Below are positions 1 through 12,036 of a stretch of DNA of 12,071 nt, piece after piece (position 1 is the stretch's first letter; every line of letters begins with the position of its first letter). Origin of the DNA: a virus; UHGV virus genome UHGV-0371921; one strand, written 5' to 3'. The notes under the pieces were generated by a model. The model searched no databases. It was not told the DNA's origin and saw only the letters and a program-made list of their open reading frames with translations. The position numbers and the translations under genes were made by a program.

Positions 1-230
1 AGACTGGAGGCTATGATGGAGAAATTATCAGCAAGGGTGTAGAAGAAATTAATGTGTTGACAAGTGAAAAAGTTTTTGTTATAGTGCATCCAGATTCCAG
101 AGTGAAGCATTACTGGAATGCCAGAACAAAAACTTGGACACCGTTTGCAGATTCTGCTACGCCACTTTTAAACCAGAAAGCTCTTGACTCTGCCCCAAGT
201 TATGGGGTTGTTGAAGAAAAGCTAAACTGA
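1..230 (+). CDS. hypothetical protein, C-terminal fragment (5' end outside window); paralog of the 2037..2432 product
   Basis: Open frame in phase with nt 3 runs from the window edge to TGA 228-230. Tail ...VHPDSRVKHYWNARTKTWTPFADSATPLL aligns by eye with ...RHPHSNIAYYWDVLNNEWTPDLQKATVLTPFL of the 2037..2432 product. Confidence 0.6.
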   Translation, partial: TGGYDGEIISKGVEEINVLTSEKVFVIVHPDSRVKHYWNARTKTWTPFADSATPLLNQKALDSAPSYGVVEEKLN

Positions 231-247
231 AACAGTGAGGTGTCACC

Positions 248-538
248 ATGATGGATTTAATTCTAAATATTGATAACGCAGGAGAGTTTAAAGACGATGG
301 TGTAACAAGCATGGACAAACCCTGCTCTGCTAAGGTTGACTCAAAATGGACCTACAAGTTTGACGGAGAGATCTTCGCAAATGATGAGAAGGTTGTAGAT
401 GCTGCAGCCATTTTAAACGCTCTAGGGTACGACCCTGTGAATTCTTTGATCAAGGATCCTGTTGAGTTTGCAGAGTATGTTCGAAAAATGGCAGATCTTG
501 CTGTGGATATTTTAAAAACTATCGACAACAAGCTGTAA
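248..538 (+). CDS. hypothetical protein (96 aa)
   Basis: ATG 248 with GTGAGG 7 nt upstream; protein-like composition; same strand as neighbours. Confidence 0.65.
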   Translation: MMDLILNIDNAGEFKDDGVTSMDKPCSAKVDSKWTYKFDGEIFANDEKVVDAAAILNALGYDPVNSLIKDPVEFAEYVRKMADLAVDILKTIDNKL

Positions 539-544
539 AAACTG

Positions 545-573
545 TTGACACAACGCTTCAGATTTAGTATCAT
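545..573 (+). promoter_or_regulatory. sigma70-like promoter TTGACA-N17-TATCAT
   Basis: TTGACA 545-550, 17 nt spacer, TATCAT 568-573; sits upstream of the HPF-like gene. Confidence 0.5.
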
Positions 574-581
574 TGTTTTCA

Positions 582-606
582 AAGAGGGTTTGGTTCCCTC
601 TTCTTT
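582..606 (+). other. stem-loop in 5' leader (AAGAGGG / CCCTCTT, 7 bp stem, 7 nt loop) followed by TCTTT
   Basis: Perfect inverted repeat 582-588 / 596-602 just after the predicted start site; possible attenuator or leader structure. Confidence 0.4.
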
Positions 607-620
607 AAAAGGAACACGTT

Positions 621-938
621 ATGCAAATTGAGATCACTGGCAACGTAGAAATCACCGAAGGCATGGTGTCTTTCATTTCCCACAAAATGTCAAAACTGGA
701 GCGTCTACATCCTTCTGTAAATCATGCACGTGTAAGTGTAAAAGTTGAAAATGATCACCAGGAAGTTATGGCGTTCATTTTTGACACTTCTGGAAAAGAA
801 GTTATTGCCAAAGCTAAGGGCAGTGATGCTTACGAGGCAACTGACCGTATGGTGGATGTTGCAGCACGTCAGCTGGCTAAATGCGGTGGAAAGAAAGGTA
901 AAGGGAAAGGCAAAGTAAAGATTGACTTTGGAGAATGA
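621..938 (+). CDS. hpf: ribosome hibernation promoting factor-like protein (RaiA/HPF/YfiA, S30AE family) with Lys/Gly-rich C-terminal tail
   Basis: MQIEITGNVEITE...KLE...VSVKVE...GKEVIAKAKGSDAYEATDRMVDVAARQLAK matches by eye E. coli Hpf (MQLNITGNNVEITE...KLE...VVLKVE...GGEIHASAEGQDMYAAIDGLIDKLARQLTK). Weak SD AAGGA; own promoter at 545-573. Confidence 0.7.
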   Translation: MQIEITGNVEITEGMVSFISHKMSKLERLHPSVNHARVSVKVENDHQEVMAFIFDTSGKEVIAKAKGSDAYEATDRMVDVAARQLAKCGGKKGKGKGKVKIDFGE

Positions 939-947
939 GGTGCTACA

Positions 948-1049
948 ATGGGCGTGATTAAGAAATTAGTCCCAAATGTAGAGATTGCATGCTTTGAAAT
1001 TATGTTTGCAATCGCAGTTGTAGTTAATGTGTTAGGTTACGGCTATTAA
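948..1049 (+). CDS. small hydrophobic peptide (33 aa), not in ORF track (below size cutoff)
   Basis: ATG 948 with GAGGTG 6 nt upstream; MGVIKKLVPNVEIACFEIMFAIAVVVNVLGYGY has a hydrophobic C-terminal half; fills the gap between flanking genes. Confidence 0.4.
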   Translation: MGVIKKLVPNVEIACFEIMFAIAVVVNVLGYGY

Positions 1050-1075
1050 TATCAAATAATTGAGGAGACCTCTAA

Positions 1076-1345
1076 ATGAAAATTAAATTATTCAAAACTG
1101 AGCTGGCAGACAAAAACTGTGGACTGGTTGAAGGCATGATTGTCGAAGCACAACCAGTTGACTATATGAAGGTGGTTCGTGATGCCCTTGGTGAAGGTTT
1201 TGATCTGATGGAGCCAGCTCTGCGAGAAGATGTTATCGAGATGGCTAAAAAGCACACACCTGAAGGAATGGTGGTGTTTGTTGCACCAGGTAACGGAGAG
1301 GAGTTGATTGTAACTCCGGATGTGTATGAGATTGTAGAGGAATAA
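1076..1345 (+). CDS. hypothetical small acidic protein (89 aa); paralog of the 2512..2769 product
   Basis: ATG 1076 with GAGGAG 8 nt upstream; shares MKIKL start and C-terminal VFV.PGNGEELIVTPDVYEIVEE-like motif with the 2512..2769 product. Confidence 0.65.
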   Translation: MKIKLFKTELADKNCGLVEGMIVEAQPVDYMKVVRDALGEGFDLMEPALREDVIEMAKKHTPEGMVVFVAPGNGEELIVTPDVYEIVEE

Positions 1346-1365
1346 TCCTGCTTGGATTAGCATAC

Positions 1366-1396
1366 TTCCTCGACAAGGAAGGTTTGTAATTATTTG
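1366..1396 (+). terminator. weak candidate intrinsic terminator (5 bp stem CTTCC/GGAAG then T-rich tract)
   Basis: Inverted repeat 1365-1369 / 1377-1381 followed by GTTTGTAATTATTTG; short stem, so low confidence. Confidence 0.25.
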
Positions 1397-1436
1397 TGGG
1401 AAAGGAATCCCAATCTCTTACCAGAGGTGATACTAT

Positions 1437-1700
1437 ATGATTGTTTATTTTAAAACTTCAGGTGGATACCCTGATTCTCAAAGCTTGATCGGAAAAACGT
1501 GCACAGCATACTCACCTCTTGATGAGGAGGTAGGAGATATTCTACGAAATATGTATCGGATTGATCCCCAAGAAGCCTTTGATCAAAACCTTGTATTTGT
1601 CAAGGGATCAGACATGAAGTCTTTGGGAGCATTCCCTGAAGCAGATGATGATGCCGTTTATTCGTTCATGACCCCTTTTGAAGCTATGGTTGTTGGGTGA
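1437..1700 (+). CDS. hypothetical protein (87 aa)
   Basis: ATG 1437 with GAGGTG 7 nt upstream. Confidence 0.65.
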   Translation: MIVYFKTSGGYPDSQSLIGKTCTAYSPLDEEVGDILRNMYRIDPQEAFDQNLVFVKGSDMKSLGAFPEADDDAVYSFMTPFEAMVVG

Positions 1701-1704
1701 TAAT

Positions 1705-2037
1705 ATGAAAGTACGCTTTATTGGTGAAACAATTCCTGTGCATCTCCGGTCGCCTGGGGATTCTGCAGATCTTGCATCTCAGAAGGCGAGAGGCTATGAT
1801 AAGAAAGTAACCTCAACCGATGTAGTGCTTGAGGCTACTAGTCTACCTGACCCTGCTGCATTCTTTAATCATTATGGATACTATTTCAGCAATCTGATGA
1901 ATATCGGTGAGCTTGTGTTTATTAGTGGTGGAGAAATTGTTAGCAAGCTTGGCGGCGATCCGGATGTCTTTCATGAAACCTGTCCTTTTGCATTTGTGGT
2001 GGGTTCAGATGTGGAAGTTATTGAGGAGGTGCGGTAA
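1705..2037 (+). CDS. hypothetical small acidic protein (110 aa)
   Basis: Track ORF begins at TTG 1678, but the first in-frame ATG (1705) lies 4 nt after the upstream stop and is the more likely start. C-terminus ends ...VVGSDVEVIEEVR. Confidence 0.6.
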   Translation: MKVRFIGETIPVHLRSPGDSADLASQKARGYDKKVTSTDVVLEATSLPDPAAFFNHYGYYFSNLMNIGELVFISGGEIVSKLGGDPDVFHETCPFAFVVGSDVEVIEEVR

Positions 2038-2432
2038 TGGTAAGCCTATACCGTGTTGAGTATAGCTCAGATACTGTATACAACGTAAGAAGCAAAGATC
2101 GCAGCGACAGAGTGCAAGAAATGTATGTTCTTGCCGACAGTCCGTTATCTGCAGCGTTCAAGGCAGGGGCTCTTGCATCTCGTTGGAAATTTGAAGGCGG
2201 ATCTTTCTATGAAGAAACCCTTGAAGATTCTGTTGTTATTTCTTCTGTAGAGGTTTCAGATGACTACGAAGGGAAAAAGTTCGTAATGCGGCACCCACAC
2301 AGCAACATTGCGTACTACTGGGATGTTCTGAACAACGAGTGGACCCCAGATCTTCAGAAGGCTACTGTGCTAACACCGTTTTTGGCAGATAAGTTCCCAC
2401 CAGATGGTAATTTATCCGCACTGTTTCAGTAA
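2037..2432 (+). CDS. hypothetical protein (131 aa); paralog of the fragment at 1..230
   Basis: ATG overlaps upstream TAA (TAATG); GAGGAGGTG SD upstream; HP.S...YW......WTP motif shared with the 1..230 fragment. Confidence 0.7.
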   Translation: MVSLYRVEYSSDTVYNVRSKDRSDRVQEMYVLADSPLSAAFKAGALASRWKFEGGSFYEETLEDSVVISSVEVSDDYEGKKFVMRHPHSNIAYYWDVLNNEWTPDLQKATVLTPFLADKFPPDGNLSALFQ

Positions 2433-2440
2433 TTTTCTTG

Positions 2441-2479
2441 CACACAGGTGTTGACAACACCAACCCTGTGTGAAATAAT
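2441..2479 (+). promoter_or_regulatory. sigma70-like promoter TTGACA-N17-AATAAT with the -35 box embedded in an 8 bp inverted repeat
   Basis: TTGACA 2451-2456, AATAAT 2474-2479; inverted repeat CACACAGG 2441-2448 / CCTGTGTG 2465-2472 flanks the -35 box (possible operator). Confidence 0.5.
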
Positions 2480-2511
2480 ACCTTCATCTTAACAAGACGG
2501 GAGACTGATTG

Positions 2512-2769
2512 ATGAAGATTAAACTGAAAAACCTTGAAATGGCAGAGATTCAGGATGGTGTTGATTTCCGCTCTAAAGATGGTGACATCTTAGAGGTAAA
2601 TCTTCCAACCTACGAGCTGATTAAAGGTTTTGGCAACGTTCAGGAAGAGGATATTCCAGAAGCTCTTATGATGTTGATTCTTGACGGAACTGTGTTTGTA
2701 GGTGAAGGTGAGAACGCTATTGCAATCCCAGGCCATTTTTATGAAGTAGCTGACGAAGAGGTGCTGTAA
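2512..2769 (+). CDS. hypothetical small acidic protein (85 aa); paralog of the 1076..1345 product
   Basis: Track starts at TTG 2509; ATG 2512 with GGGAG 9 nt upstream is preferred. MKIKL start and VFVGEGENAIAIPGHFYEVADEEVL tail resemble the 1076..1345 product. Confidence 0.65.
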   Translation: MKIKLKNLEMAEIQDGVDFRSKDGDILEVNLPTYELIKGFGNVQEEDIPEALMMLILDGTVFVGEGENAIAIPGHFYEVADEEVL

Positions 2770-3120
2770 ATGAAAGTAGAAATTACTGGTTTTGATGTTA
2801 GTGTGGTTCCGGAAGATATTTTAGCTAACTTACCGGAAGGTTTTGGTAACGGTGTTGTGGTGGATGCTGTTCCTCCTACCAAAGACATTCTGCTGCAGTA
2901 TGGTGTAGCAGAGAAAGATGTCGATAAAGTTCTTACAATGATGGCAATCGATCGTGTTGTCGTTGTTAAAGGTCTCGATAATTTTGAGAGTGATCCTCTG
3001 ATTATTCGCGGAGATGACTACAAAATCATCGATAATGAAGGCCAAGAGTTCTATGAGCCTTGTGCAGAAGATATTCTTAACTTATTACTGGAAGCAGGCA
3101 CCGAAGAGGAGGACGAATAA
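2770..3120 (+). CDS. hypothetical acidic protein (116 aa)
   Basis: ATG follows upstream TAA directly; GAGGTG SD; acidic C-terminus. Confidence 0.7.
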   Translation: MKVEITGFDVSVVPEDILANLPEGFGNGVVVDAVPPTKDILLQYGVAEKDVDKVLTMMAIDRVVVVKGLDNFESDPLIIRGDDYKIIDNEGQEFYEPCAEDILNLLLEAGTEEEDE

Positions 3121-3449
3121 TGAAGATTGACCAGTTACTGAAGGCTCGTGCAGAAAAAGCGTACACCATTAAGCTGACCAATCTGGTTCCTACTTGTCAT
3201 CCGGATGTAGGTTGGCCCGAAGGTCTGGTAGAGGGAACTGTAACAGCTGCATACCTTCCTGACATCAAGTACCTTATGGAGATCTTAGAGATGGATGAGG
3301 AAACTGCAGAACAGTTCCAGTTAGATATGAAACAGAGTGGGACTCTGGTTATTCACGGGTGGTATAATACTAAAGATGCAGAAGACCCTCTGGTAACTTC
3401 TAATCTGGCATATGAAATCTTAGGTCCTTTGAACCTGGAGGAAGACTAA
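3120..3449 (+). CDS. hypothetical acidic protein (109 aa)
   Basis: TAATG overlap with upstream gene; GAGGAGGA SD. Confidence 0.7.
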   Translation: MKIDQLLKARAEKAYTIKLTNLVPTCHPDVGWPEGLVEGTVTAAYLPDIKYLMEILEMDEETAEQFQLDMKQSGTLVIHGWYNTKDAEDPLVTSNLAYEILGPLNLEED

Positions 3450-3736
3450 TGAAAGATCTGGTTAAGATTAAGATTAAAGATACCAATGGAGAACTCAGCC
3501 ATTTTGGAATTAATGATGGTGACGAGCTGATCGCACACCTGCCTACTAAGGAGGTTGTAAGCAAAGCAGTTGCCGGAGAAGAAGCTGCAATGCAGGCTGC
3601 AGGCGTGGATGAAAACTATGTAGCTATGTGCATGTGCCGAGATCAGGTTGTTCTGTATAAAGCGTATCGACCAAACGGAGCCACGGAGTGGCTTGTATTC
3701 CGACCCGAAGGATATGAAATCTTAGAGGCACTATGA
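3449..3736 (+). CDS. hypothetical protein (95 aa)
   Basis: TAATG overlap with upstream gene; GGAGG SD. Confidence 0.7.
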   Translation: MKDLVKIKIKDTNGELSHFGINDGDELIAHLPTKEVVSKAVAGEEAAMQAAGVDENYVAMCMCRDQVVLYKAYRPNGATEWLVFRPEGYEILEAL

Positions 3737-3816
3737 TAAATCTTGCCAAGGTTGCAACGGCACTGTTAATTATTTGCTGGTCTGTAACCTTAACACTGTG
3801 TCTTGTATTTCAGTGA
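3733..3816 (+). CDS. small hydrophobic peptide (27 aa, MINLAKVATALLIICWSVTLTLCLVFQ), predicted single transmembrane helix
   Basis: ATG 3733 overlaps upstream stop (ATGA); AGAGG 5 nt upstream; stop TGA 3814-3816; below ORF-track cutoff. Confidence 0.35.
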   Translation: MINLAKVATALLIICWSVTLTLCLVFQ

Positions 3817-3825
3817 GGTGCTTGT

Positions 3826-4089
3826 ATGAACATCCTGATGTGGGTTATAGCAGTGGCGTTTGTTGCATGTTTTTGCTGCTGGGTTGCGGTGAGGATTTCT
3901 GTAGCTACCCTTCGGAAGTTGGGGTTCTCAGAATGGGATATTAATATCCTTTCTTTTCGCAATGAAACAATCTCAGCCGCCCTGCTTTGTAAGAAATTCA
4001 AGTGGGAACCTTGTGAGGTCATGAGCTATCTAAGAACAGGCGATATCCCTGAAAGATTTAAAAAAGTTCTTGACGGCAAAGATAAATGA
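3826..4089 (+). CDS. small membrane protein (87 aa) with N-terminal transmembrane helix
   Basis: ATG 3826 with GTGAGGTG SD 7 nt upstream; N-terminus MNILMWVIAVAFVACFCCWVAV is strongly hydrophobic. Confidence 0.65.
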   Translation: MNILMWVIAVAFVACFCCWVAVRISVATLRKLGFSEWDINILSFRNETISAALLCKKFKWEPCEVMSYLRTGDIPERFKKVLDGKDK

Positions 4090-4117
4090 CAGTATAGTGA
4101 CTAACAAGAGGTGAGGA

Positions 4118-4258
4118 GTGACTGATTTTACTGAAGCTTTAATGATGGCCTTGTCTGTTTTAGCGCTATCGGTGTGTTTTGGGGCGTTATTCACATCTCT
4201 GGTTAAAGTTTTACATACAGTATTATTACCCAAGGGGCGCAGTAATGACGAAGATTGA
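4118..4258 (+). CDS. small hydrophobic peptide (46 aa from GTG 4118, or 38 aa from ATG 4142)
   Basis: AAGAGG 4106-4111 lies 6 nt before GTG 4118; product ...MMALSVLALSVCFGALFTSLVKVLHTVLLPKGRSNDED contains one hydrophobic helix; 3' end overlaps the next gene start by 14 nt. Confidence 0.35.
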   Translation: MTDFTEALMMALSVLALSVCFGALFTSLVKVLHTVLLPKGRSNDED

Positions 4259-4496
4259 CTTGAATGCTGGAGACCATGTTGTTGTCAAATGCATCGGAGA
4301 TTATCTTGGATTCACAATCGGCAATACTTACGAGGCGGTAGTGGCGAAGGTTTATCATGATAAAGTCCTCAGTCTTGTATTTGACTGCGATGATGATGGA
4401 GATGACCGATACGTCTGTGAGGTGCTGGCACGAGACGACAGTGAAGACCAGAAATTCCTGGTTATTGAACTGAACGGTATTTTTGTAGAACGTTAA
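4245..4496 (+). CDS. hypothetical acidic protein (83 aa)
   Basis: Track begins at TTG 4179; the in-frame ATG 4245 with AAGGGG 7 nt upstream is preferred; contains DCDDDGDD acidic stretch. Confidence 0.6.
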   Translation: MTKIDLNAGDHVVVKCIGDYLGFTIGNTYEAVVAKVYHDKVLSLVFDCDDDGDDRYVCEVLARDDSEDQKFLVIELNGIFVER

Positions 4497-4524
4497 TTTA
4501 AAACAACATAAGGAGACTCTTACT

Positions 4525-4830
4525 ATGGCTAAATCTAAAGTTGAACTGTTCACCTCTCTTCCTTCTGACACTGCAGAGCGTGATCGCCTTCGCAAGACAA
4601 TCGAAGAACTGGTGGAACTCCAACTTCAGATTAAAGATCTGAAAGATGCCATTAAGGATATCATTCTCGTTGAGAAGCAGGATCACCTGTATTCTCCTAA
4701 ATTCATCAAATCTTTGGTGGCTACCGAGTTCGATATTCGCTATGAGGCTGAAAAACGTCGAGCTAAAATCGAAGAAGAGGTTGAGCACATGTCCGAGGCA
4801 GACATTCTGTTCAAACGCTCTGTAGAATAA
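4525..4830 (+). CDS. hypothetical charged, probably alpha-helical or coiled-coil protein (101 aa)
   Basis: Consensus AAGGAG 4510-4515, 9 nt before ATG; strong terminator directly downstream; heptad-like charged sequence. Confidence 0.75.
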   Translation: MAKSKVELFTSLPSDTAERDRLRKTIEELVELQLQIKDLKDAIKDIILVEKQDHLYSPKFIKSLVATEFDIRYEAEKRRAKIEEEVEHMSEADILFKRSVE

Positions 4831-4838
4831 TGACAAAG

Positions 4839-4863
4839 AGAGGGGCTTGGGCCCCTCTTTTTA
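4839..4863 (+). terminator. intrinsic terminator (AGAGGGGC-TTGG-GCCCCTCT then TTTTT)
   Basis: Perfect 8 bp GC-rich stem 4839-4846 / 4851-4858 followed by T5 tract. Confidence 0.8.
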
Positions 4864-4885
4864 CTATCTATGAAGGAGATTTGAG

Positions 4886-5218
4886 ATGGGTATACCGATC
4901 ACTGTAAAAGAATTGAATGAACGTGATGCAGGTGGTCTATGGCCTGCACGAAAAATACGCTGCATCCGTATGAAAGAGAACCTTGAGCATCTTGAGCAAC
5001 AGAAACGGATTGAGGTTGGTGATATTTTCGAAGTATTTTATTCTGATCGCCGTAACTGGGAAACCATTCAACCTTCCGGTTTTGTTCTTGCTAAGCTTGA
5101 CACTGGAGAAGTGATTGTTCCTGGGTTGGATATTGTCTTCGAAATTATCCAGGAGTGGGATCCGGACAAGATTAGATACGAAGAGCTATTCGGTGAAGGT
5201 ATTATCAAACCTGTGTGA
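4886..5218 (+). CDS. hypothetical protein (110 aa)
   Basis: ATG 4886 with AAGGAG 7 nt upstream. Confidence 0.7.
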   Translation: MGIPITVKELNERDAGGLWPARKIRCIRMKENLEHLEQQKRIEVGDIFEVFYSDRRNWETIQPSGFVLAKLDTGEVIVPGLDIVFEIIQEWDPDKIRYEELFGEGIIKPV

Positions 5219-5226
5219 GGTGGATT

Positions 5227-5526
5227 ATGTCTACAAAGGCGGCTAAATACTCCTACATGCCATCAACCTCTGCAGAGGTAGACTTTAGTTTCGATGTGTT
5301 TCCACTGTTTGAGGTGGTTCTGGCATACCCAACAATACTATCTACTCCTGAATCACTTGTGCCTGTTAAGTTGCAGAACGCTATGCATTCCATGCACTAC
5401 AACAACAAATGTAGGCACAGATGGTGTCAGGACGAGGAAAAAGATTTGGATAGTTTGAGAGATTTTGACAGTCACCTTTTGACACCTTTCAGCTACTCCA
5501 ACCTTGATAAGCCCTCGTGGGTATAG
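5227..5526 (+). CDS. hypothetical protein (99 aa)
   Basis: Track starts at GTG 5215; ATG 5227 with GTGAGGTGG SD is preferred. Composition is less typical (His/Cys-rich middle), so moderate confidence; followed by a terminator. Confidence 0.5.
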   Translation: MSTKAAKYSYMPSTSAEVDFSFDVFPLFEVVLAYPTILSTPESLVPVKLQNAMHSMHYNNKCRHRWCQDEEKDLDSLRDFDSHLLTPFSYSNLDKPSWV

Positions 5527-5550
5527 CAAAATATCAAATTTAAGACACCT

Positions 5551-5580
5551 AGGACGCTCTGTGGCGTCCTTTTCTTTATC
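5551..5580 (+). terminator. intrinsic terminator (AGGACGC-TCTGTG-GCGTCCT then TTTCTTTAT)
   Basis: 7 bp stem 5551-5557 / 5564-5570 followed by T-rich tract. Confidence 0.7.
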
Positions 5581-5739
5581 TGGTGCACGATTGCATACCT
5601 TGGGCAGTTAATCTCATTACAGAGCGTTTAAGAGCTCCCTACAAACAACTCCATATTTCGAGCGTAGCGAGAACGCACGTCCGTTTTGACCCAAATCACC
5701 ATACGCTCGGATTTTAACCAAACCCTCGCGGCGTTTCTG

Positions 5740-5768
5740 TTGACACATTACCGCTCCAGTGATAATAT
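5740..5768 (+). promoter_or_regulatory. sigma70-like promoter TTGACA-N17-TAATAT
   Basis: TTGACA 5740-5745, 17 nt spacer, TAATAT 5763-5768; a DnaA-box-like ATATCCACA overlaps the start region at 5765-5773. Confidence 0.55.
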
Positions 5769-5788
5769 CCACACATCATTTGGAGAAT

Positions 5789-5890
5789 ATGGGATACACA
5801 ATGAAAACATTGTCAGAGGTTTTGGTGGTGATCCTGATGATCATTACGTCCATAGCAGCTGTTGCCGGAATACTCACGGGTGGAACATGA
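5789..5890 (+). CDS. small hydrophobic peptide (33 aa, MGYTMKTLSEVLVVILMIITSIAAVAGILTGGT)
   Basis: First ORF downstream of the 5740 promoter; GGAGA 3 nt before ATG 5789 (alternative ATG 5801); one predicted transmembrane helix; below ORF-track cutoff. Confidence 0.4.
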   Translation: MGYTMKTLSEVLVVILMIITSIAAVAGILTGGT

Positions 5891-6101
5891 TCAACACACA
5901 CATGCATCTGAAGAGACATCCAAAGGAGTGACTATATGTCCCTTGGCTGAGCCAGTGAAAGAGGAAAACTTAGATTCTGAAGATTCTCCATCTTCGCTCC
6001 AGGTAGATCCTGAGGCTGATGACCTAACGTGGGAAGACATCGTAGATATCTGGTTCTCTATTATGCCTGAGCACGAAGAGTTCAGAGGTGGTAGACTATG
6101 A
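5862..6101 (+). CDS. hypothetical highly acidic protein; 5' end uncertain (track TTG 5862; alternatives TTG 5943, GTG 5955)
   Basis: Open frame with acidic, protein-like C-terminal half (EENLDSEDSPSSLQVDPEADDLTWEDIVDIWFSIMPEHEEF). No good SD before 5862; AAGGAG 5923-5928 instead serves a 4-codon mini-ORF (ATG 5936 to TGA 5948-5950). Confidence 0.4.
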   Translation: MPEYSRVEHDQHTHASEETSKGVTICPLAEPVKEENLDSEDSPSSLQVDPEADDLTWEDIVDIWFSIMPEHEEFRGGRL

Positions 6102-6222
6102 AGCACCGAGCCCACACAGGTTCCTCATGCTAAAGCATGGCCTGAAGAGGCAAACGTGCATAATTCCTGTGCATTGGGACGTATAAAACCCTGTTCACAC
6201 TCTCATTTCCAGAGGAGATTTT

Positions 6223-6438
6223 ATGAAGATAGAAATATTTGGTGGAGCTGACAACACTCGTGGCCTGATTTACCTTGAATTCGATGAATCATACCTGCCA
6301 GAGGTGTTAAATATAGACTCTGTTGCTGAGGCTTTGGGAGTAAACCCTAAAGAACTCCACTCTTGTGCTGAGATCGATGGTTGGGAAGAGACCATGAACA
6401 TTGATTTCAGTGAAGTAGAGGATGAACCGCTGGACTGA
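6223..6438 (+). CDS. hypothetical acidic protein (71 aa)
   Basis: ATG 6223 with GAGGAG 5 nt upstream; last gene of the rightward block. Confidence 0.6.
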   Translation: MKIEIFGGADNTRGLIYLEFDESYLPEVLNIDSVAEALGVNPKELHSCAEIDGWEETMNIDFSEVEDEPLD

Positions 6439-6532
6439 CGCACAATTAGCTGCCCGGCCAAAGTGCTGGAAGCGCACCTATAACACATCTTTCAACTAAA
6501 TTTCCCACCACCACAATCACTTACCTTCCACA

Positions 6533-6565
6533 CATGACTGTTTGCTTGTTTAGTGAGCAGTCATG
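6533..6565 (+). other. inverted repeat CATGACTG-N17-CAGTCATG immediately upstream of a promoter
   Basis: 8 bp arms at 6533-6540 and 6558-6565. Confidence 0.4.
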
Positions 6566-6567
6566 CC

Positions 6568-6595
6568 TTGACATTCTTGCCTATCCTGATAAAAT
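6568..6595 (+). promoter_or_regulatory. sigma70-like promoter TTGACA-N16-TAAAAT reading into the ORF-free zone
   Basis: TTGACA 6568-6573, 16 nt spacer, TAAAAT 6590-6595; no ORF with a ribosome binding site follows. Confidence 0.45.
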
Positions 6596-7119
6596 TAAGT
6601 TCTTCTCTTTTCTTTTACCGAGTAATTCGGGTTTTCTGTTCTCTTCGGTTTGAAGGGGTATGGAGATACACCTGAGTGAACAGGGTGAACAACCGAACCA
6701 TTGGCTATGGCATTAGCATGGCGAAGCGGACGGGTGACGAAAGAGGGGCCGGAGGACACCAGTCACTGCCATATGATATATGGGTGATAACCTGAAGAGT
6801 CTGAATAAGTGTTTAAGTACCAGTCAGAGGAAAAGGTGAATGGTAGCCGAAGGGGAGGGGGGTTTCTTGTATCTTTAATTTGTATATTATGTATACACTT
6901 GTAAACCAATCTCATCTGAATCTGTTTACCACACAAAGCGAATAGAGACAAATATTACCTATTAAACTTGAATTATTTATAGAAAATACCGCAACACCAC
7001 TTAAGTCTTTGATTTTACACACAAATCCTACAGATATTCAGCCTCCCTATTTAACATACCTGTAACATATTCCATACTCTACCTGCCTGATCAATTTACC
7101 CAACTACATCCCCATATTT

Positions 7120-7350
7120 TCCCTGTCTGTACTACCCCTGCCCCGCCGGGAGTCCCGTCATATCTGGCTTTCCAGCAAATATCACACCCACAAATATCAT
7201 TGCCTGAAGAGGGTTTCATCCCATAATACATACCTTGCCTGAAGATCGCTTCATACACCACGTAAATTTTTTAATTGACCTGCAATTTCTCCTCAGATAT
7301 CCCCCTGTCCCGCCGGAGAGGTTGTCTTTTCCCACACAGACCTGAAGAGT
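7120..7350. repeat. degenerate ~175 bp duplication carrying CCCTG(C/T)CCCGCCGG and CCTGAAGAG motifs
   Basis: CCCTGCCCCGCCGGGAG at 7134-7150 versus CCCTGTCCCGCCGGAG at 7302-7317; CCTGAAGAG at 7203-7211 and 7341-7349 (also CCTGAAGAT at 7238-7246). Confidence 0.5.
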
Positions 7351-7544
7351 CAGTCAGAAATATCTGAATGGGCCCAGTTCTGCCCTGTCATGAGCGGTAG
7401 CGACTGGAGTGCTGCCAGGCGGACGGAATGGGAATACTTCTCATTCTTATAATAATTCTCAAATATCGAGGCAGTGAGGCAAATTAATAGGTGAGGCCGT
7501 TCACACAGTGGCACAACATTTGCAATCTATTTTGTGAGGGTGAA

Positions 7545-7579
7545 TGAGAATACCTATCATTGTGAGAATCTTTATCATT
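7545..7579. repeat. imperfect tandem repeat TGAGAAT(ACC/CTT)TATCATT x2
   Basis: Copies at 7545-7561 and 7563-7579, 14 of 17 positions identical. Confidence 0.5.
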
Positions 7580-7933
7580 ACGGGCAATTTAACATAATAC
7601 CCATTATGCGCACCACTGGCGATACATACAGGGATTGATAACATAGGTTACTGTTTACGCACATAACAATTATATTTCTTATTATTTGTGGGGGGATATA
7701 GTTAGCAGCCAATAGATTAGATATTGACCTGCAGACTTCTGACCGTCCAGACGTCTAAACGCCCACACAACAAGGATTATACATACAACACTGAATGTAA
7801 ACAGGGCCGCAAAAATGCTACCATACAAGCTTGTAAATTTTTCATGCAGCACTTGACAAAGAGGAGAAAAACTTGTCTGACATAATATGACACTTTAAGC
7901 ACATTAAACACACTGAACATAATTGACATGCAT

Positions 7934-8038
7934 GACTGTTTACGCTGTCACTATTCACGCTATTACTATTCGCTCGCTTACTGTTCATGACCTTTACTGT
8001 TTACATTCCCAATAGTTTACATAGCTTACTGTTAACGT
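7934..8038. repeat. iteron-like cluster of ACTGTTTAC / TTACTGTT direct repeats
   Basis: Exact ACTGTTTAC at 7935-7943 and 7996-8004 (also 7650-7658 and 8472-8480 outside the cluster); variants TTACTGTTCA 7978-7987, TAGTTTACA 8013-8021, TTACTGTTAAC 8026-8036; all in one orientation. Confidence 0.6.
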
Positions 8039-8064
8039 ATAGATTATTTACTCAAAAATGATAA

Positions 8065-8084
8065 GCCATGCCATTCGTTTGCAT
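8065..8084. repeat. 20 bp direct repeat GCCATGCCATTCGTTTGCAT, left copy
   Basis: Identical 20-mer recurs at 8296-8315. Confidence 0.8.
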
Positions 8085-8130
8085 GACAATAATTATACAT
8101 GACAATAATCGCACTGATTATAATTAGCAT

Positions 8131-8282
8131 GACATAATATAAAAGCAGGGCAACTATTAGCAGATCTATAGTTGCCTTGCTTGTTATGTCATGATTAACT
8201 GAATACAAGGCAACTATGATCTGATTAATAGATTGCAGACAAACTATCACGGGGGTGATGGTTACTGCTTTTATATTATGTC
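8131..8282. repeat. 16 bp inverted repeat pair GACATAATATAAAAGC (8131-8146) / GCTTTTATATTATGTC (8267-8282) enclosing the palindrome
   Basis: Exact reverse complements. Confidence 0.75.
8149..8176. repeat. 28 bp palindrome GGCAACTAT-N10-ATAGTTGCC (candidate protein-binding site)
   Basis: 9 bp arms are exact reverse complements; further GGCAACTAT copies at 8209-8217 (direct) and 8314-8322 (inverted); 12-mer CAAGGCAACTAT is shared by the arm at 8168-8179 and the copy at 8206-8217. Confidence 0.75.
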
Positions 8283-8295
8283 GCGACTCCGTCGC

Positions 8296-8315
8296 GCCAT
8301 GCCATTCGTTTGCAT
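8296..8315. repeat. 20 bp direct repeat GCCATGCCATTCGTTTGCAT, right copy
   Basis: Identical to 8065-8084; preceded by small hairpin CGCGAC-TCC-GTCGCG (8282-8296). Confidence 0.8.
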
Positions 8316-8929
8316 AGTTGCCTTATTGTTACAGATAGAATAATTGTATTGTTAATTATTTCTTATCTTTCTATTAGTCATCTAATGATTCCAGTTAGTA
8401 TAGTAACGTACAGTAAACATTAGACGACTAAAGATTTCTCTGCTTATGGTAACCTAACGTGACAATTCCAGACTGTTTACGAAAAATGTTGACACTTGGG
8501 CCGATTTATGTTATGCAGTTTACACGAATAATTATTTTATGCAGGTATTGACTATTCCGTTATTCTATGGTTGGAATAAATGCTTAGCAGGCTATAGAAT
8601 GGCGAGCGTACGTAAATTCTGAGATCTGGCGGCTATAGTTATACTCGATTTTTCACGTAGAAAACGCTTTTGTAGTTATGTAAGTGTATGACTTATAAGA
8701 ATTTTTAGTTGTTGACAAGCTATTGAAGATATGCATCAGGTTAAATTTTGTGCAAATGCTGCATTACGTGCAATTTTGGAAGGAAAAACGTGTAAAAATG
8801 GCCCTGCTACCACACAATGAAAAATTATGCAATAGTTATTTTATATGTATGTTTGTACAGTGGGGTTAATTGCTGGCTTGTTGATTATTCCATTTGCCAG
8901 GCGGGGCCATTTGTGGTAGGAAAAGAGGA

Positions 8930-8958
8930 GACAAAAGAAAGGGGCTTTAAGCCCCTGA
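8930..8958 (-). terminator. intrinsic terminator of the leftward gene block (minus RNA: AGGGGCU-UAA-AGCCCCU then UUUCUUUUGUC)
   Basis: 7 bp stem plus U tract on the minus strand, just downstream of the last minus-strand stop codons (8976 / 8987). Confidence 0.7.
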
Positions 8959-8975
8959 CCGTGCACCTTGTTGTA

Positions 8976-9110
8976 TTATTTGTTGCTCATCCAGTTTTCC
9001 CAAGCTGCCTGATAATCTGCCTCACTACGGCGGATCTCTTCTTGCTCTTCAAGGCGGATCTCTTCTTCCAGGTACCCCAAGATGTCAGCCTTTTTGGTCT
9101 GGCGTAACAT
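8976..9110 (-). CDS. alternative -1 frame ORF (44 aa, MLRQTKKADILGYLEEEIRLEEQEEIRRSEADYQAAWENWMSNK), possibly the true C-terminal part of the 9238 gene
   Basis: Protein-like acidic sequence with EEEIR repeat; no strong SD of its own; fully overlapped by the track ORF in another frame. Confidence 0.3.
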   Translation of the reverse strand: MLRQTKKADILGYLEEEIRLEEQEEIRRSEADYQAAWENWMSNK

Positions 9111-9238
9111 CCAATCATCTTTTTACGAGTGAAGATCTTATAAGCTTTCTCGCAAACCTCTTTTTTGCTACCTTTCTGGACTTCAAGAATTCTGTAGGCC
9201 ATGTACTGAACTAATTTAAGCTGATCCAGACGTTTCAT
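8987..9238 (-). CDS. hypothetical protein; 3' half likely out of frame (see frameshift finding)
   Basis: ATG 9238 with AAAGAGGA 7 nt upstream; N-terminal 40 aa protein-like, but residues after about 40 are Lys/Arg/Ser/Trp-rich, typical of out-of-frame translation. Confidence 0.4.
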   Translation of the reverse strand: MKRLDQLKLVQYMAYRILEVQKGSKKEVCEKAYKIFTRKKMIGCYARPKRLTSWGTWKKRSALKSKKRSAVVRQIIRQLGKTG

Positions 9239-9315
9239 GATGTTTCCTCTTTATGTGGTTCGTTTTGATTAGTTGATAATACAGCAGTTCGCAGATCAGT
9301 CTTTAGCAATTCATG

Positions 9316-9534
9316 CTATTTACTCACAACGGTGTCGAAAACAAATTTTTCTTTATTGTCTAAACTCACGTATCCGATTCGACCACGCAAGCCGCAAGTA
9401 GTGCCGTACTCGTAACCATTAAGGCCTTTAACCTTCCAATCCGTACCCATTAAAACCGCATTATATTCCTGACCAACTACAAAAGCGCCCCCAGTCGATT
9501 CAATGCAAACAACTTTAATTTTACGGGTTGTCAT
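9316..9534 (-). CDS. hypothetical protein (72 aa)
   Basis: ATG 9534 with AAGAGAG upstream in a CCACACAAAGAGAG leader. Confidence 0.65.
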   Translation of the reverse strand: MTTRKIKVVCIESTGGAFVVGQEYNAVLMGTDWKVKGLNGYEYGTTCGLRGRIGYVSLDNKEKFVFDTVVSK

Positions 9535-9566
9535 TTTCTTTCTCTCTTTGTGTGGTTCTGATTAGT

Positions 9567-9580
9567 GGGCCTTTTGGCCC
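9567..9580 (-). other. GC-rich stem-loop in 5' leader (GGGCC-AAAA-GGCCC on minus RNA)
   Basis: Perfect 5 bp stem; lies between a candidate promoter and the SD of the 9316..9534 gene. Confidence 0.5.
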
Positions 9581-9588
9581 GTGTCATT

Positions 9589-9617
9589 ATCTTATTACTT
9601 ATGGCGGCAGAATTCAA
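9589..9617 (-). promoter_or_regulatory. candidate sigma70-like promoter TTGAAT-N17-TAAGAT (minus strand)
   Basis: Minus-strand -35 at 9617-9612 and -10 at 9594-9589; overlaps the 3' end of the upstream gene. Confidence 0.3.
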
Positions 9618-9867
9618 GTGTTTTTAATTGATAATCTTCCTCAGCCTGGAGTACGACCGCCTCGATCATTTCGTTGGCATTGTTAAAGCCATAACCTTTA
9701 GCGAACTCATCCGCGCCACCTTCGTGATCATGTTCTGCGTTCATCGCTTCCACAAAATGGAATTCCAAATTGTTGAGGTAGGGGCTTGATGTGCCGTCTT
9801 CTTTTTCGATGAGATCCCAAATAGCATTAAAACGTGATTCGACTTCTTGATTAATCCAGCTTGACAT
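9595..9867 (-). CDS. hypothetical acidic protein (90 aa)
   Basis: ATG 9867 with AGGAGAGAGG upstream. Confidence 0.65.
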   Translation of the reverse strand: MSSWINQEVESRFNAIWDLIEKEDGTSSPYLNNLEFHFVEAMNAEHDHEGGADEFAKGYGFNNANEMIEAVVLQAEEDYQLKTLEFCRHK

Positions 9868-9896
9868 AGTGTTTTCCTCTCTCCTGGTTATTGTGT

Positions 9897-9910
9897 GGGC
9901 ACTTTTGCCC
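9897..9910 (-). other. GC-rich stem-loop in 5' leader (GGGCA-AAAG-TGCCC on minus RNA)
   Basis: Directly downstream of the -10 of the 9922-9950 promoter and upstream of the SD. Confidence 0.5.
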
Positions 9911-9921
9911 CTTCAAGATAA

Positions 9922-9950
9922 ATGTTACCCCACCCCATGGCAGATGTCAA
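9922..9950 (-). promoter_or_regulatory. sigma70-like promoter TTGACA-N17-TAACAT (minus strand)
   Basis: Minus-strand TTGACA at 9950-9945, 17 nt spacer, TAACAT at 9927-9922; in a 210 bp intergenic gap. Confidence 0.45.
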
Positions 9951-10036
9951 CGGTTTTTATAGTTCTTATATGACAGGCAGGCCCGGTGATTGTCTCCACC
10001 CGTCGCCAGGTGCCTGCCGTGAAACAAGTATAACAA

Positions 10037-10064
10037 AAAACAGGACCATTGCAAGCCCTGTTTT
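10037..10064 (-). terminator. candidate intrinsic terminator (minus RNA: AAAACAGG...CCUGUUUU running into a U6 tract)
   Basis: Inverted repeat 10037-10044 / 10057-10064 with 12 nt loop; U tract on the minus strand; immediately after the stop of the 10079..10270 gene. Confidence 0.4.
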
Positions 10065-10078
10065 GTAGTTTATAAGGA

Positions 10079-10270
10079 TTATATTTTTTCGCCTATGTAG
10101 TCCGGTCGGTTTTTCTCTGTCATGCGCTTGAGCAATTCTTGCATGTTGCTTATGGCTTGCAGTGTATCCCCTTCCAGACTTGAATCAACATAATCAGGAT
10201 CGTCTATAACCTTTCTATGATTATGATAACGCAGTACCGCCAATACCTTTCTAACTTGTTCGATATTCAT
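10079..10270 (-). CDS. hypothetical protein (63 aa)
   Basis: ATG 10270; weak SD AAAGAGCG; protein-like sequence. Confidence 0.6.
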   Translation of the reverse strand: MNIEQVRKVLAVLRYHNHRKVIDDPDYVDSSLEGDTLQAISNMQELLKRMTEKNRPDYIGEKI

Positions 10271-10281
10271 TTTATCGCTCT

Positions 10282-10416
10282 TTAAAACAAGGTGCCAACC
10301 GTTCCCAATAGATCACTGACTACCAGGACAATACTGATTAGCACATACCTAACCATAAGGGGAAAGAGCGCCAGCGATCCAGCCACAATCCCCAAGGTGA
10401 TGATTATCTTTCTCAT
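10282..10416 (-). CDS. small hydrophobic protein (44 aa), two predicted transmembrane segments
   Basis: ATG 10416 lies 2 nt after the upstream stop (translational coupling); no clear SD; below track cutoff. Confidence 0.4.
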   Translation of the reverse strand: MRKIIITLGIVAGSLALFPLMVRYVLISIVLVVSDLLGTVGTLF

Positions 10417-10418
10417 GG

Positions 10419-10703
10419 TTAACGGTTTACGTAAGCTTTACCGTTTACGGTGATGGGCAGATCTTCCAGGTCTGGATCTTCCTTAAGGTCGCGAGCAAGC
10501 TCACCGCACCGGATACCCTCGAATCCGTAGTACTCTGTTGTGCCGTCATTAAAAGTTTTAGCGGCAAGGCATAAGCGATAAGTAACCCCGATTTGATTGA
10601 CGGCATGGATATCCGTTAGATTAACCTCTTTTGCCAGCTCTTTAGCCATTACAGGCGCATTAAGTCCAACAACCAGGGCAACTACTGCGATCATCTTTTT
10701 CAT
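10419..10703 (-). CDS. small secreted or periplasmic protein with N-terminal signal peptide (94 aa, two Cys)
   Basis: ATG 10703 with AAGAGG 9 nt upstream; MKKMIAVVALVVGLNAPVMA-KEL has positive n-region, hydrophobic core and AxA-like cleavage motif. Confidence 0.7.
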   Translation of the reverse strand: MKKMIAVVALVVGLNAPVMAKELAKEVNLTDIHAVNQIGVTYRLCLAAKTFNDGTTEYYGFEGIRCGELARDLKEDPDLEDLPITVNGKAYVNR

Positions 10704-10731
10704 TGTGTCTAGCCTCTTTCTGCTACGTTTA

Positions 10732-10749
10732 AGGCGGCGGTAACCGCCT
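10732..10749 (-). other. GC-rich stem-loop in 5' leader (AGGCGG / CCGCCT, 6 nt loop)
   Basis: Perfect 6 bp inverted repeat upstream of the SD of the signal-peptide gene. Confidence 0.45.
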
Positions 10750-10794
10750 GTTTATGATTTATTGGTTAATTTTCAGGTATCGCTATAAATTAAA

Positions 10795-11010
10795 CTATGC
10801 TGTACGCTCAACTATAACAACGGTTTGCGGGATCTCACCTTCCACCACTATCAAGGCCTTTTTCTGCGTGATGGATATCTTTACCCGTTGCAGCGTGGCG
10901 GTGAAGTCTTTCATTTCGTCACGTGGTGTTTTAGTGCAATGCCAGATCTCTGGCTTGCCGATCTGCAAGCCTCGCAAGAATTCCGTTTTACCTGTCTTAT
11001 TCGTGATCAT
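10795..11010 (-). CDS. hypothetical protein (71 aa from ATG 11010; track extends to ATG 11034)
   Basis: ATG 11010 has AAGGTG 6 nt upstream, whereas ATG 11034 has no SD; more protein-like than the two overlapping plus-strand ORFs. Confidence 0.5.
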   Translation of the reverse strand: MITNKTGKTEFLRGLQIGKPEIWHCTKTPRDEMKDFTATLQRVKISITQKKALIVVEGEIPQTVVIVERTA

Positions 11011-11020
11011 TTGATTCACC

Positions 11021-11125
11021 TTAACCGATACCATGGGAAGATAGGATCATGTTAGCCATAGTTGCAACCACTCCAACCGATAATGCCAGGCCAACTACTA
11101 CAACCGTGAAAATTTTATCTAACAT
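11021..11125 (-). CDS. small hydrophobic peptide (34 aa, MLDKIFTVVVVGLALSVGVVATMANMILSSHGIG)
   Basis: ATG 11125 with GAGGG about 7 nt upstream; single hydrophobic helix; below track cutoff. Confidence 0.35.
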   Translation of the reverse strand: MLDKIFTVVVVGLALSVGVVATMANMILSSHGIG

Positions 11126-11144
11126 GATTCTACCCTCATTAATG

Positions 11145-11161
11145 GCGGGAAGTATTCCCGC
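11145..11161 (-). other. stem-loop GCGGGAA-GTA-TTCCCGC (7 bp stem, 3 nt loop)
   Basis: Perfect palindrome just upstream of the SD of the 11021..11125 peptide. Confidence 0.45.
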
Positions 11162-11207
11162 GCTATGTAGTACACTTTACCAGATTGTTGACTGTTGTCA
11201 AACTATT

Positions 11208-11387
11208 TTAACGATAATCATCATATGCTTTATTGACCTGGCGAATATAACATTCAAAAGCTAGATCAATAGATTTATATTCACGGATATATTCACCATA
11301 GGAAACCACATACATTTCTATAGCTTCCTCATATGCGAGAAGAATAGAATCTAAGCCTACGATCTCAGTCTTTGCAATAATAGCCAT
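11208..11387 (-). CDS. hypothetical acidic protein (59 aa, MAIIAKTEIVGLDSILLAYEEAIEMYVVSYGEYIREYKSIDLAFECYIRQVNKAYDDYR)
   Basis: ATG 11387 with AAAGAGGA upstream in a CCACAAAGAGGA leader; shares the MAI start context with the 12036 gene; missing from track because below 60 aa. Confidence 0.5.
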   Translation of the reverse strand: MAIIAKTEIVGLDSILLAYEEAIEMYVVSYGEYIREYKSIDLAFECYIRQVNKAYDDYR

Positions 11388-11413
11388 GATTTTTTATCCT
11401 CTTTGTGGTTGGT

Positions 11414-11428
11414 GGGGCTTGTTGCCCC
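11414..11428 (-). other. GC-rich stem-loop in 5' leader (GGGGC-AACAA-GCCCC on minus RNA)
   Basis: Perfect 5 bp stem upstream of the SD of the 11208..11387 gene. Confidence 0.5.
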
Positions 11429-11463
11429 CTTTGATTTATATACTACAGTCTTATATGGTCATG

Positions 11464-11697
11464 TCAACTATTTTCAAAAAATTTTTCTGCTGTGATATTT
11501 TTCCCGGTAGGGTTCGCTACTTTCAAAATTTTATCATGCACTGGACGCCCAAAAGAATAAGATCCGTATACAGTAAACCAATAATCGCCGTCAGGTTGTA
11601 CTATTACCGCCGCATATGGTACGCCTTTTTCGTTTTTGCTGACAAAATAGATCACATTGCCATTAATAGCCTCAGCGCGTTTAATTTGTTCCATCAT
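11464..11697 (-). CDS. hypothetical protein (77 aa)
   Basis: ATG 11697 with AGAGAGG upstream. Confidence 0.6.
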   Translation of the reverse strand: MMEQIKRAEAINGNVIYFVSKNEKGVPYAAVIVQPDGDYWFTVYGSYSFGRPVHDKILKVANPTGKNITAEKFFENS

Positions 11698-11727
11698 GAT
11701 GATTTACCTCTCTTTATTTTCATAATT

Positions 11728-11744
11728 GGGGCCTTTTCGGCCCC
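11728..11744 (-). other. GC-rich stem-loop (GGGGCC-GAAAA-GGCCCC on minus RNA)
   Basis: Perfect 6 bp GC stem between the stop of the 11752 gene and the SD of the 11697 gene. Confidence 0.5.
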
Positions 11745-11751
11745 GCCAGGT

Positions 11752-12036
11752 TTATTTATTGATAGCGTGCAGCGGGAAAGGTACGCCAGGTTGATAGATA
11801 ACTTTTACAACCTCATCAGGGCAAAAGAAATTGCAGAATTCACCCTGATAAGCCTCATCCTCTTTCAATTCTTCATCAACATACTCAAAAAAGTAGTCGA
11901 TGCTTGGATAATCCTGGCCGGGATTATAGTCTACCATCGTTAATAACAATTCTTGATCATTCCGTAGGATATGCATACCCGCTTTTAAGTATTTTGCTTC
12001 CATTTCCACTACATCGCCAACGGTGACAATAGCCAT
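11752..12036 (-). CDS. hypothetical acidic protein (94 aa)
   Basis: ATG 12036 with AGGAG about 8 nt upstream; protein-like; the overlapping 185 aa plus-strand ORF looks like an antisense artefact. Confidence 0.65.
   Translation of the reverse strand: MAIVTVGDVVEMEAKYLKAGMHILRNDQELLLTMVDYNPGQDYPSIDYFFEYVDEELKEDEAYQGEFCNFFCPDEVVKVIYQPGVPFPLHAINK

Follow-up and report, generated by a model that had tools for sequence, protein, structure and literature searches.

Phages resembling rV5 are among the most frequently isolated phages of Escherichia coli and are used in biocontrol cocktails, and roughly half of their genes are without known function. We analyzed a stretch of 12,071 nucleotides from UHGV virus genome UHGV-0371921 (hereafter the window, with positions given on one strand, 5' to 3'), whose plus-strand genes include an array of small, mostly acidic proteins that a preliminary description, made from the letters alone, had read as one tandem family. 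For rV5 itself, the genome paper has the array genes closing a transcription unit for DNA metabolism (PMC3606486). A described protein of similar build is the CarS antirepressor of Myxococcus xanthus, a small acidic DNA mimic of SH3 topology that acts by binding another protein (PMC2926617). We found that 12 genes of unknown function collapse into three sequence families, which we call A, B, and C, and that the members of B and C are predicted to share an SH3-like fold. The best explanation as a whole, to which we give a probability of about 60%, is that the array consists of duplicated small acidic SH3-like binding modules belonging to three old families.

The window is rV5-like Vequintavirus DNA, 98% identical to phages of that type. 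Its positions 1-6500 gave 120 matches among phage records at 90-98% identity, nearly all of them to Escherichia phages of the genus Vequintavirus (rV5, FFH2, APECc02, nomine, and the BASEL phages Bas48-59), and in 117 of the 120 records at least 80% of the query was covered with gene order and content kept. Eighteen records are labelled 'Campylobacter phage' (MG0656xx, host Campylobacter jejuni) and are 95-99% identical here to the E. coli Vequintaviruses, a surprising host label that may reflect mis-assignment or contamination. With the whole APECc02 genome (135 kb) serving as reference for upstream genes and genome-wide scans, the plus-strand genes of the window proved to be the last part of a leftward unit of ~37 kb that starts with ligase, exonuclease, ribonucleotide reductase, thymidylate synthase, PhoH, and a ClpP-like protease, ends in ~40 small genes, and converges across a stretch free of open reading frames (ORFs) on a second small-gene block (the minus-strand genes at window 9316-12036). 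The rV5 genome paper recognizes the same four transcription units, together with 33 sigma-70-type promoters and a 'non-coding' box (PMC3606486). The array opens with B, B, and A, continues through an unrelated gene and HPF to C, B, B, and A, and closes with four C genes in a row; an extra B copy lies ~3.6 kb upstream. This order was identical across all genomes inspected. An array of this kind is ordinary for a large lytic phage. Like the arrays of other large lytic phages and the 'moron' slots of prophages, it has short coupled genes, sigma-70-type promoter-like sites, lineage-specific copy number, and allele swaps; unlike them, it is unusually stable, with the same order in 117 of 120 records and ratios of nonsynonymous to synonymous substitution (dN/dS) of at most 0.3.

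The division into three families emerged from an all-versus-all Smith-Waterman comparison of 41 proteins (17 plus-strand and 8 minus-strand window genes plus 16 upstream APECc02 genes) with 100 shuffles per pair, which gave clusters at z=15.7 for A, z=5-27 for B, and z=3.5-6.6 for C. Because the scores within family C were modest, we built leave-one-out hidden Markov model (HMM) profiles from orthologues found in a search of 5.8 billion proteins, dropping each member together with its own orthologues. Every B and C member then ranked first among 366 six-frame ORFs from 50 kb of phage DNA, with E-values between 1e-3 and 3.5e-10 in family C and between 8e-6 and 2e-18 in family B, and the next-ranked ORF never fell below E=0.03. 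Scanning the 954 six-frame ORFs of the 135-kb genome recovered two copies of A, five of B, and five of C, with nothing else below E=0.3; all 12 lie at 38.7-46.7 kb (a span of ~8 kb). Other paralogue pairs detected by BLASTP across the genome were few (tail fibres, gp019/gp020, and gp160/gp161), so the array is the main concentration of paralogues in the genome. The last two are themselves adjacent small-gene pairs, at 35% identity for gp019/gp020 (APECc02 15806-16396) and 39% identity for gp160/gp161 (APECc02 128128-128654).

Family A comprises two paralogues and is found by tblastn at two places per genome. The first is cut by the window edge, so that positions 1-230 (plus strand, as for all array genes) hold only its C-terminal 76 codons, orthologous to the 136-residue APECc02 gp085; the second, at 2037-2432, encodes 131 residues with an isoelectric point (pI) of 4.7 and is translationally coupled to the preceding 1705 gene through an ATGA overlap. 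Kinship between the fragment and the 2037-2432 product, proposed in the preliminary description, was borne out by a Smith-Waterman score of 111 (z=15.7 over shuffles) and by within-genome BLASTP (E=1.6e-6), whereas the motif by which it had been proposed was written one spacer short and reads HP.S....YW......WTP. Both paralogues are already grouped in phrog_7379, whose HMM matches them over their full length (E=4.8e-66 for the 2037 product and 4.9e-74 for gp085), and the family A HMM matches the gp085 orthologue at 6.7e-79. The dN/dS of the 2037 gene is 0.04-0.09. Profile comparisons of A with B and C gave P=0.2-0.35 with no HMM cross-match, and on these comparisons family A is a separate, larger protein without sequence relation to the other two. 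Its invariant HP.S....YW......W(T)P is reminiscent of the core motif HPN...C...W.P that characterizes ubiquitin-conjugating E2 enzymes, and a single-sequence phmmer search of PDB sequences with the 2037 product returned three E2 chains over the HPN...W.P core (E=0.34-0.64). We dropped the assignment to E2 or ubiquitin E2 variant (UEV) proteins: the family profile loses the E2 matches and Pfam is empty, the position of the catalytic Cys (eight before the tryptophan of W.P) is an invariant Tyr in both paralogues, the orthologue of a sister lineage (described below) has WTT in place of WTP, and an hhalign comparison with a hand-written E2 alignment gave P=0.079, a score that unrelated neighbours equal.

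Family B is made up of two window genes, at 1437-1700 (87 residues, pI 4.1) and 1705-2037 (110 residues, pI 4.7, with an insertion of ~40 residues between strands 2 and 3 of the predicted fold), and three genes on the APECc02 DNA upstream of the window (L001 1683-1916, 5351-5575, and 5565-5819). The three upstream genes match phrog_5009 at 5e-32 to 2.5e-38 and are grouped there, whereas the 1437 product reaches no better than 1.2e-4 there and the 1705 product has no match to it; it was the leave-one-out profiles that placed both in the family, the 1705 product at E=1.5e-6 and with Smith-Waterman z=7.8-8.2 against the upstream B genes. A B-B-A block is present twice, at L001 5351-6230 and at window 1437-2432, which suggests a segmental duplication. 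Beyond the Vequintaviruses, family B is found in mEp021-like lambdoid prophages of E. coli, where it lies between the Q antiterminator and holin genes, an interval that is a classic accessory-gene slot, and it is weakly matched in Vibrio phage CHOED.

Family C has five members, all in the window: 1076-1345 (89 residues, pI 4.4; leave-one-out E=1.5e-4, rank 1 of 366; dN/dS 0.05), 2512-2769 (85 residues, pI 4.1; 2.2e-5; the most variable gene of the array), 2770-3120 (116 residues, pI 4.05, charge -20, with an extra acidic C-terminal tail; E=3.5e-10, and z=6.6 by Smith-Waterman against the 2512 product), 3120-3449 (109 residues, pI 4.3, with an N-terminal extension; E=1e-3, rank 1), and 3449-3736 (95 residues, pI 4.8; E=1.8e-5). 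An exhaustive HMMER search with the family C profile found seven genuine small relatives. It also returned four large repeat proteins (469-2400 residues, 5-18 matched stretches) that we judged to be compositional artefacts, the one inspected (P0101, 469 residues) being a T/V/D-rich Ig-like repeat. In PHROGs, each C gene and the 1705 product sit in singletons (phrog_11868, 12359, 12155, 12457, 12794, and 13661), so that this resource records neither a family C of five members nor the enlarged family B nor the fold that the two share by prediction. Several GenBank/RefSeq records (APECc02 gp082, nomine, S127 BCL3) label the 1076 gene 'sigma 54 modulation factor'. Since its product has no Pfam match at E<=0.1, including to Ribosomal_S30AE (PF02482), and no similarity to the adjacent true HPF, this label looks like a propagated annotation error.

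These assignments redraw the membership that the preliminary description had given. It had paired the 1076 and 2512 products through an MKIKL start and a C-terminal VFV..G...I..P..YE(I/V) motif, both of which are present, although the pair taken alone is weak (z=4.2). Of the four further products in which it saw a weaker form of the motif, 3120 and 3449 do belong to family C, whereas 1705 belongs to B and 4886 to none, and it overlooked 2770 (C) and 1437 (B). Pairwise alignment against shuffles and leave-one-out profiles upheld kinship within the families, and profile comparison left family A and the 4886 product without a link to B or C; the 4886-5218 product resembles none of the families significantly (hhalign P=0.06-0.42, no HMM match). 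No other neighbour joins B or C either, the products of 4886, 248, 4245, and 6223, the upstream small genes, and the minus-strand genes all giving P>0.0035, with the lowest of these values resting on just 5-15 aligned columns. The description of the products as strongly acidic holds for most in the window (pI 4.05-4.84, net charge -6 to -20), with full-length gp085 a near-neutral exception (pI 7.8). Two elements of the shared motif are in part set at the nucleotide level. 'MK' starts are frequent among many genes of the region, and a Shine-Dalgarno site lies ahead of every gene; at the junctions 1705/2037, 2512/2770, 2770/3120, and 3120/3449 (2020-2037, 2752-2770, 3100-3120, and 3432-3449) this site, GAGGAGG or GAGG, is contained in the final codons of the preceding gene and there encodes Glu-Glu or Glu-Val in the acidic C-terminus. 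The terminal 'EE' of the motif is thus partly imposed by nucleotides, as it overlaps the Shine-Dalgarno site of a translationally coupled downstream gene.

We evaluated how far the array has changed across lineages, the preliminary description having called it diversifying. Against three divergent Vequintavirus genomes the array genes have dN/dS of 0.03-0.30, indicating purifying selection, with the highest values in the 2512, 2770, and 248 genes apart from the very short ORF at 4118-4258, where counts are small. Paralogues are 18-31% identical and share no DNA-level repeats, which indicates that the duplications are old. Given these features and the stable order, the term has weak support; the variation seen comprises copy number, an allele swap, and chimeras. 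Copy number differs in a sister lineage of four uncultured IMG/VR contigs (118-141 kb) that keeps synteny and shares DNA similarity with the cultured phages over only 178 nucleotides of the 2.9 kb compared: it has fewer copies (one A, one B, and four C), is without HPF, the 1437-1705-2037 block, and the 3120 gene, and has unrelated ORFs at the place of the upstream B pair. Allele replacement is seen in phage MiataMamis (PP925834.1), where the 2512 gene only is replaced by an allele 50% identical in amino acids; nucleotide identity is 0.61-0.75 over 2501-2800 versus 0.93-1.0 in both flanks, a sharply bounded swap, and the same allele occurs in metagenomes (P0094). Metagenomes also hold chimeras. 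In P0063 the N-terminal and C-terminal halves come from two different B paralogues, and in P0081 a prophage-type B N-terminus precedes a phage-type C-terminus. P0051 carries the C-terminal half of the 3120 product behind a foreign N-terminus (precomputed Pfam PF24132), and P0107 is a fusion of gp085 with the 248 product.

To compare the families beyond sequence, we used AlphaFold2 models run on the family alignments, with B and C compared through secondary-structure strings and library matches rather than by superposition. The family C model (2512 product; predicted local distance difference test score, pLDDT, 88.7; predicted template modelling score, pTM, 0.76) has the elements E2-5, a short helix, E26-28, H34-38, H45-57, E61-63, E70-72, and E77-79, and the family B model (1437 product; pLDDT 96.9, pTM 0.86) has E2-5, E21-23, H30-39, H44-49, E52-56, H57-62, E74-78, and E83-85. 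Both match SH3-like five-stranded small barrels with SH3 strand order, in a class that includes SH3, KOW, PsaE, PhnA-C, and Tudor-like folds. The two models have a common order of elements, a helical insertion in the same loop, and matched Gly-to-Pro spacing, and the first predicted strand of the barrels begins at residue 2. Short B members (74-77 residues) have a mere loop where 1437, 1705, 5565, and all C members have the insertion, which identifies the region between strands 2 and 3 as the variable element. The B and C proteins are acidic domains of 70-116 residues, many of which end in an acidic tail. Among BFVD structures the family C model has one significant neighbour, the 86-residue A0A6M5CA15 of Vibrio phage Vc1, which aligns over its full length (template modelling score 0.72/0.71, 86 aligned columns, 27% identity, Foldseek E=2.5e-4) and was not recovered by tblastn or HMMER searches. 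CarS resembles the B and C proteins in size, acidity, and SH3 topology (predicted for B and C); no sequence relationship to it was detected and it was absent among the structural matches listed.

Whether the shared fold reflects shared descent was weighed against two other readings. The same element order, the SH3-like barrel matches, and the insertion in the same loop suggest that B and C probably form one superfamily, and we consider their common ancestry likely, with the structural evidence, itself drawn from models, stronger than that from sequence. The profile comparisons connect the two families marginally: HMMER gave no B-C cross-match, hhalign of the two profiles gave P=1.4e-3 (probability 18%) over the first 28 columns (the MK(I/V)K strand, Gly, strand, and Pro) with 1-2 of 100 column shuffles equalling the observed score, and the local P became 0.06 with the seven distant C relatives added. 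Other comparisons were closer, a global alignment lining up strands 1, 2, and 3 as well as the C-terminal E(I/V)VE at P=6.8e-4, and the 3449 product, the best single cross-match to the family B profile, giving P=7.6e-4 over 52 columns (best of 82 cross-comparisons). Were B and C instead independent families that each chanced on an SH3-like barrel, with their adjacency a mere pile-up of small accessory genes, one would have to account for the same element order, insertion site, and Gly-to-Pro spacing in both models, for cross-family P-values (7.6e-4 and 1.4e-3) below all 62 comparisons with unrelated neighbours (best P=0.0035, over seven columns), and for the interleaving of the two families within one array; we regard such independent origins as doubtful, if possible. 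At the other extreme, the single diverging family of the preliminary description, taking in the 1-230 fragment and the 2037 and 4886 products as well, draws on the MK start, hydrophobic VFV strand, and acidic C-terminus visible by eye and on the common predicted fold of B and C, yet family A and the 4886 product score no better against B and C than unrelated neighbours do, HMM cross-matches are lacking, and the motif is in part the product of Shine-Dalgarno overlap, all of which makes a single family highly improbable.

What such barrels might do was assessed from their conserved positions, their setting, and the literature. Searches of Pfam, NCBIfam, and PDB sequences with every family gave no usable match (a match to 3liu at E=0.019 and weak LRAT and RluB matches were treated as chance), the matched PHROGs families are all of 'unknown function', and no paper on the function of these genes came up in literature searches. 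Conservation falls on Gly, Pro, Tyr, and hydrophobic positions; no member has conserved residues of catalytic type, and the lack of a catalytic-looking polar set makes an enzyme unlikely. As to timing, three consensus matches to sigma-70 promoters lie on the plus strand within the array, at 545-573 (TTGACA-17-TATCAT, 11/12, in the gap before the HPF gene), at 922-949 (10/12, extended -10, ahead of the 1076 gene), and at 2451-2479 (TTGACA-17-AATAAT, 11/12, extended -10, in the intergenic space ahead of the four consecutive C genes). Early expression from host sigma-70-type promoters, implied when the preliminary description placed the genes in an early region, is plausible from these near-consensus sites and from the promoters of the rV5 paper (PMC3606486). 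Under the explanation that we prefer, the region would form the distal end of a long unit in which small accessory genes are transcribed together, and in which the three families arose by old tandem or segmental duplication and B and C descended from one ancestral barrel. Each paralogue would be a non-enzymatic binding module, made early, that uses its variable insertion and acidic surface to bind and sequester or modulate a macromolecule of the host (or of a competing element), with a different target for each paralogue. This account of small acidic early-made binding modules, drawn by analogy, is the best-supported reading in our analysis. A more specific form of it, which we put forward as speculative and rather improbable, is that B and C are an unrecognised superfamily of acidic, CarS-like decoys of SH3 topology, each neutralising a different host DNA-binding, nucleoid, or defence protein via the variable insertion, with the 2512 swap and the copy numbers recording an arms race.

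Two other functions were considered. The preliminary description had named DNA mimics, and acidic barrels that, like Ocr or ArdA, block restriction enzymes or another defence aimed at DNA would suit the pI of 4.05-4.8, net charges down to -20, and a likely early position in infection, with CarS as a precedent for an acidic SH3-topology protein that mimics operator DNA (PMC2926617). Vequintavirinae are, however, reported to be 'exceptionally susceptible' to restriction-modification systems and to 'lack any effective protection' (PMC8594841), which disfavours an Ocr-type anti-restriction role, and the proteins have no similarity to any known mimic; we think DNA mimicry of this kind unlikely, and given CarS the mimicry could possibly be directed at another target. 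Still less probable, in our judgement, are nucleic-acid- or ribosome-binding barrels of KOW, Sm, or OapB type that act with the neighbouring HPF on translation: the KOW structural matches and the adjoining HPF gene point that way, but strongly acidic proteins with no conserved basic patch would be poor nucleic-acid binders, and the sister lineage keeps four C genes without HPF, so the two are not obligatorily linked.

The array is flanked and interrupted by genes of other kinds. A ribosome hibernation factor of the HPF/RaiA type lies mid-array at 621-938 (Pfam PF02482, E=4.4e-13), and the run of C genes is followed by two small predicted membrane proteins, at 3826-4089 and 4118-4258, whose hydrophobic segments are N-terminal or central; the latter is preceded by a sigma-70-like site (4070-4098). 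The most conserved gene of the array (dN/dS <=0.02), at 4525-4830, encodes a 101-residue coiled-coil-like protein matching phrog_639 'transcriptional regulator' (E=1e-21) and, weakly, the GapR DNA-binding domain (E=0.04). Neither tRNA genes nor Rfam matches were found within the window. Between the converging gene blocks, window 6500-9300 is ORF-free and AT-rich (GC content 0.34-0.38 around 7500-9000). The motif ACTGTTTACG occurs five times there on the plus strand with at most one mismatch (7650, 7935, 7996, 8028, and 8472), its 8 matches across the window comparing with 0.5 expected and with none of 200 shuffles reaching 8, and a perfect 18-nucleotide inverted repeat lies at 8131-8148 and 8265-8282. 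This stretch could be an origin, iterons, or a regulatory region.

For the rV5-like phages, sorting the array in this way corrects the annotation of the 1076 gene and indicates that ten of the 12 genes probably have one small acidic barrel fold with a hypervariable insertion. The value added lies in this predicted common SH3-like fold and in a compact candidate set for interaction and deletion screens. If the barrels are not decoys, the array would represent ordinary gene duplication in a phage accessory region; if they are decoys of host proteins, they would constitute a new scaffold among phage takeover or anti-defence factors.

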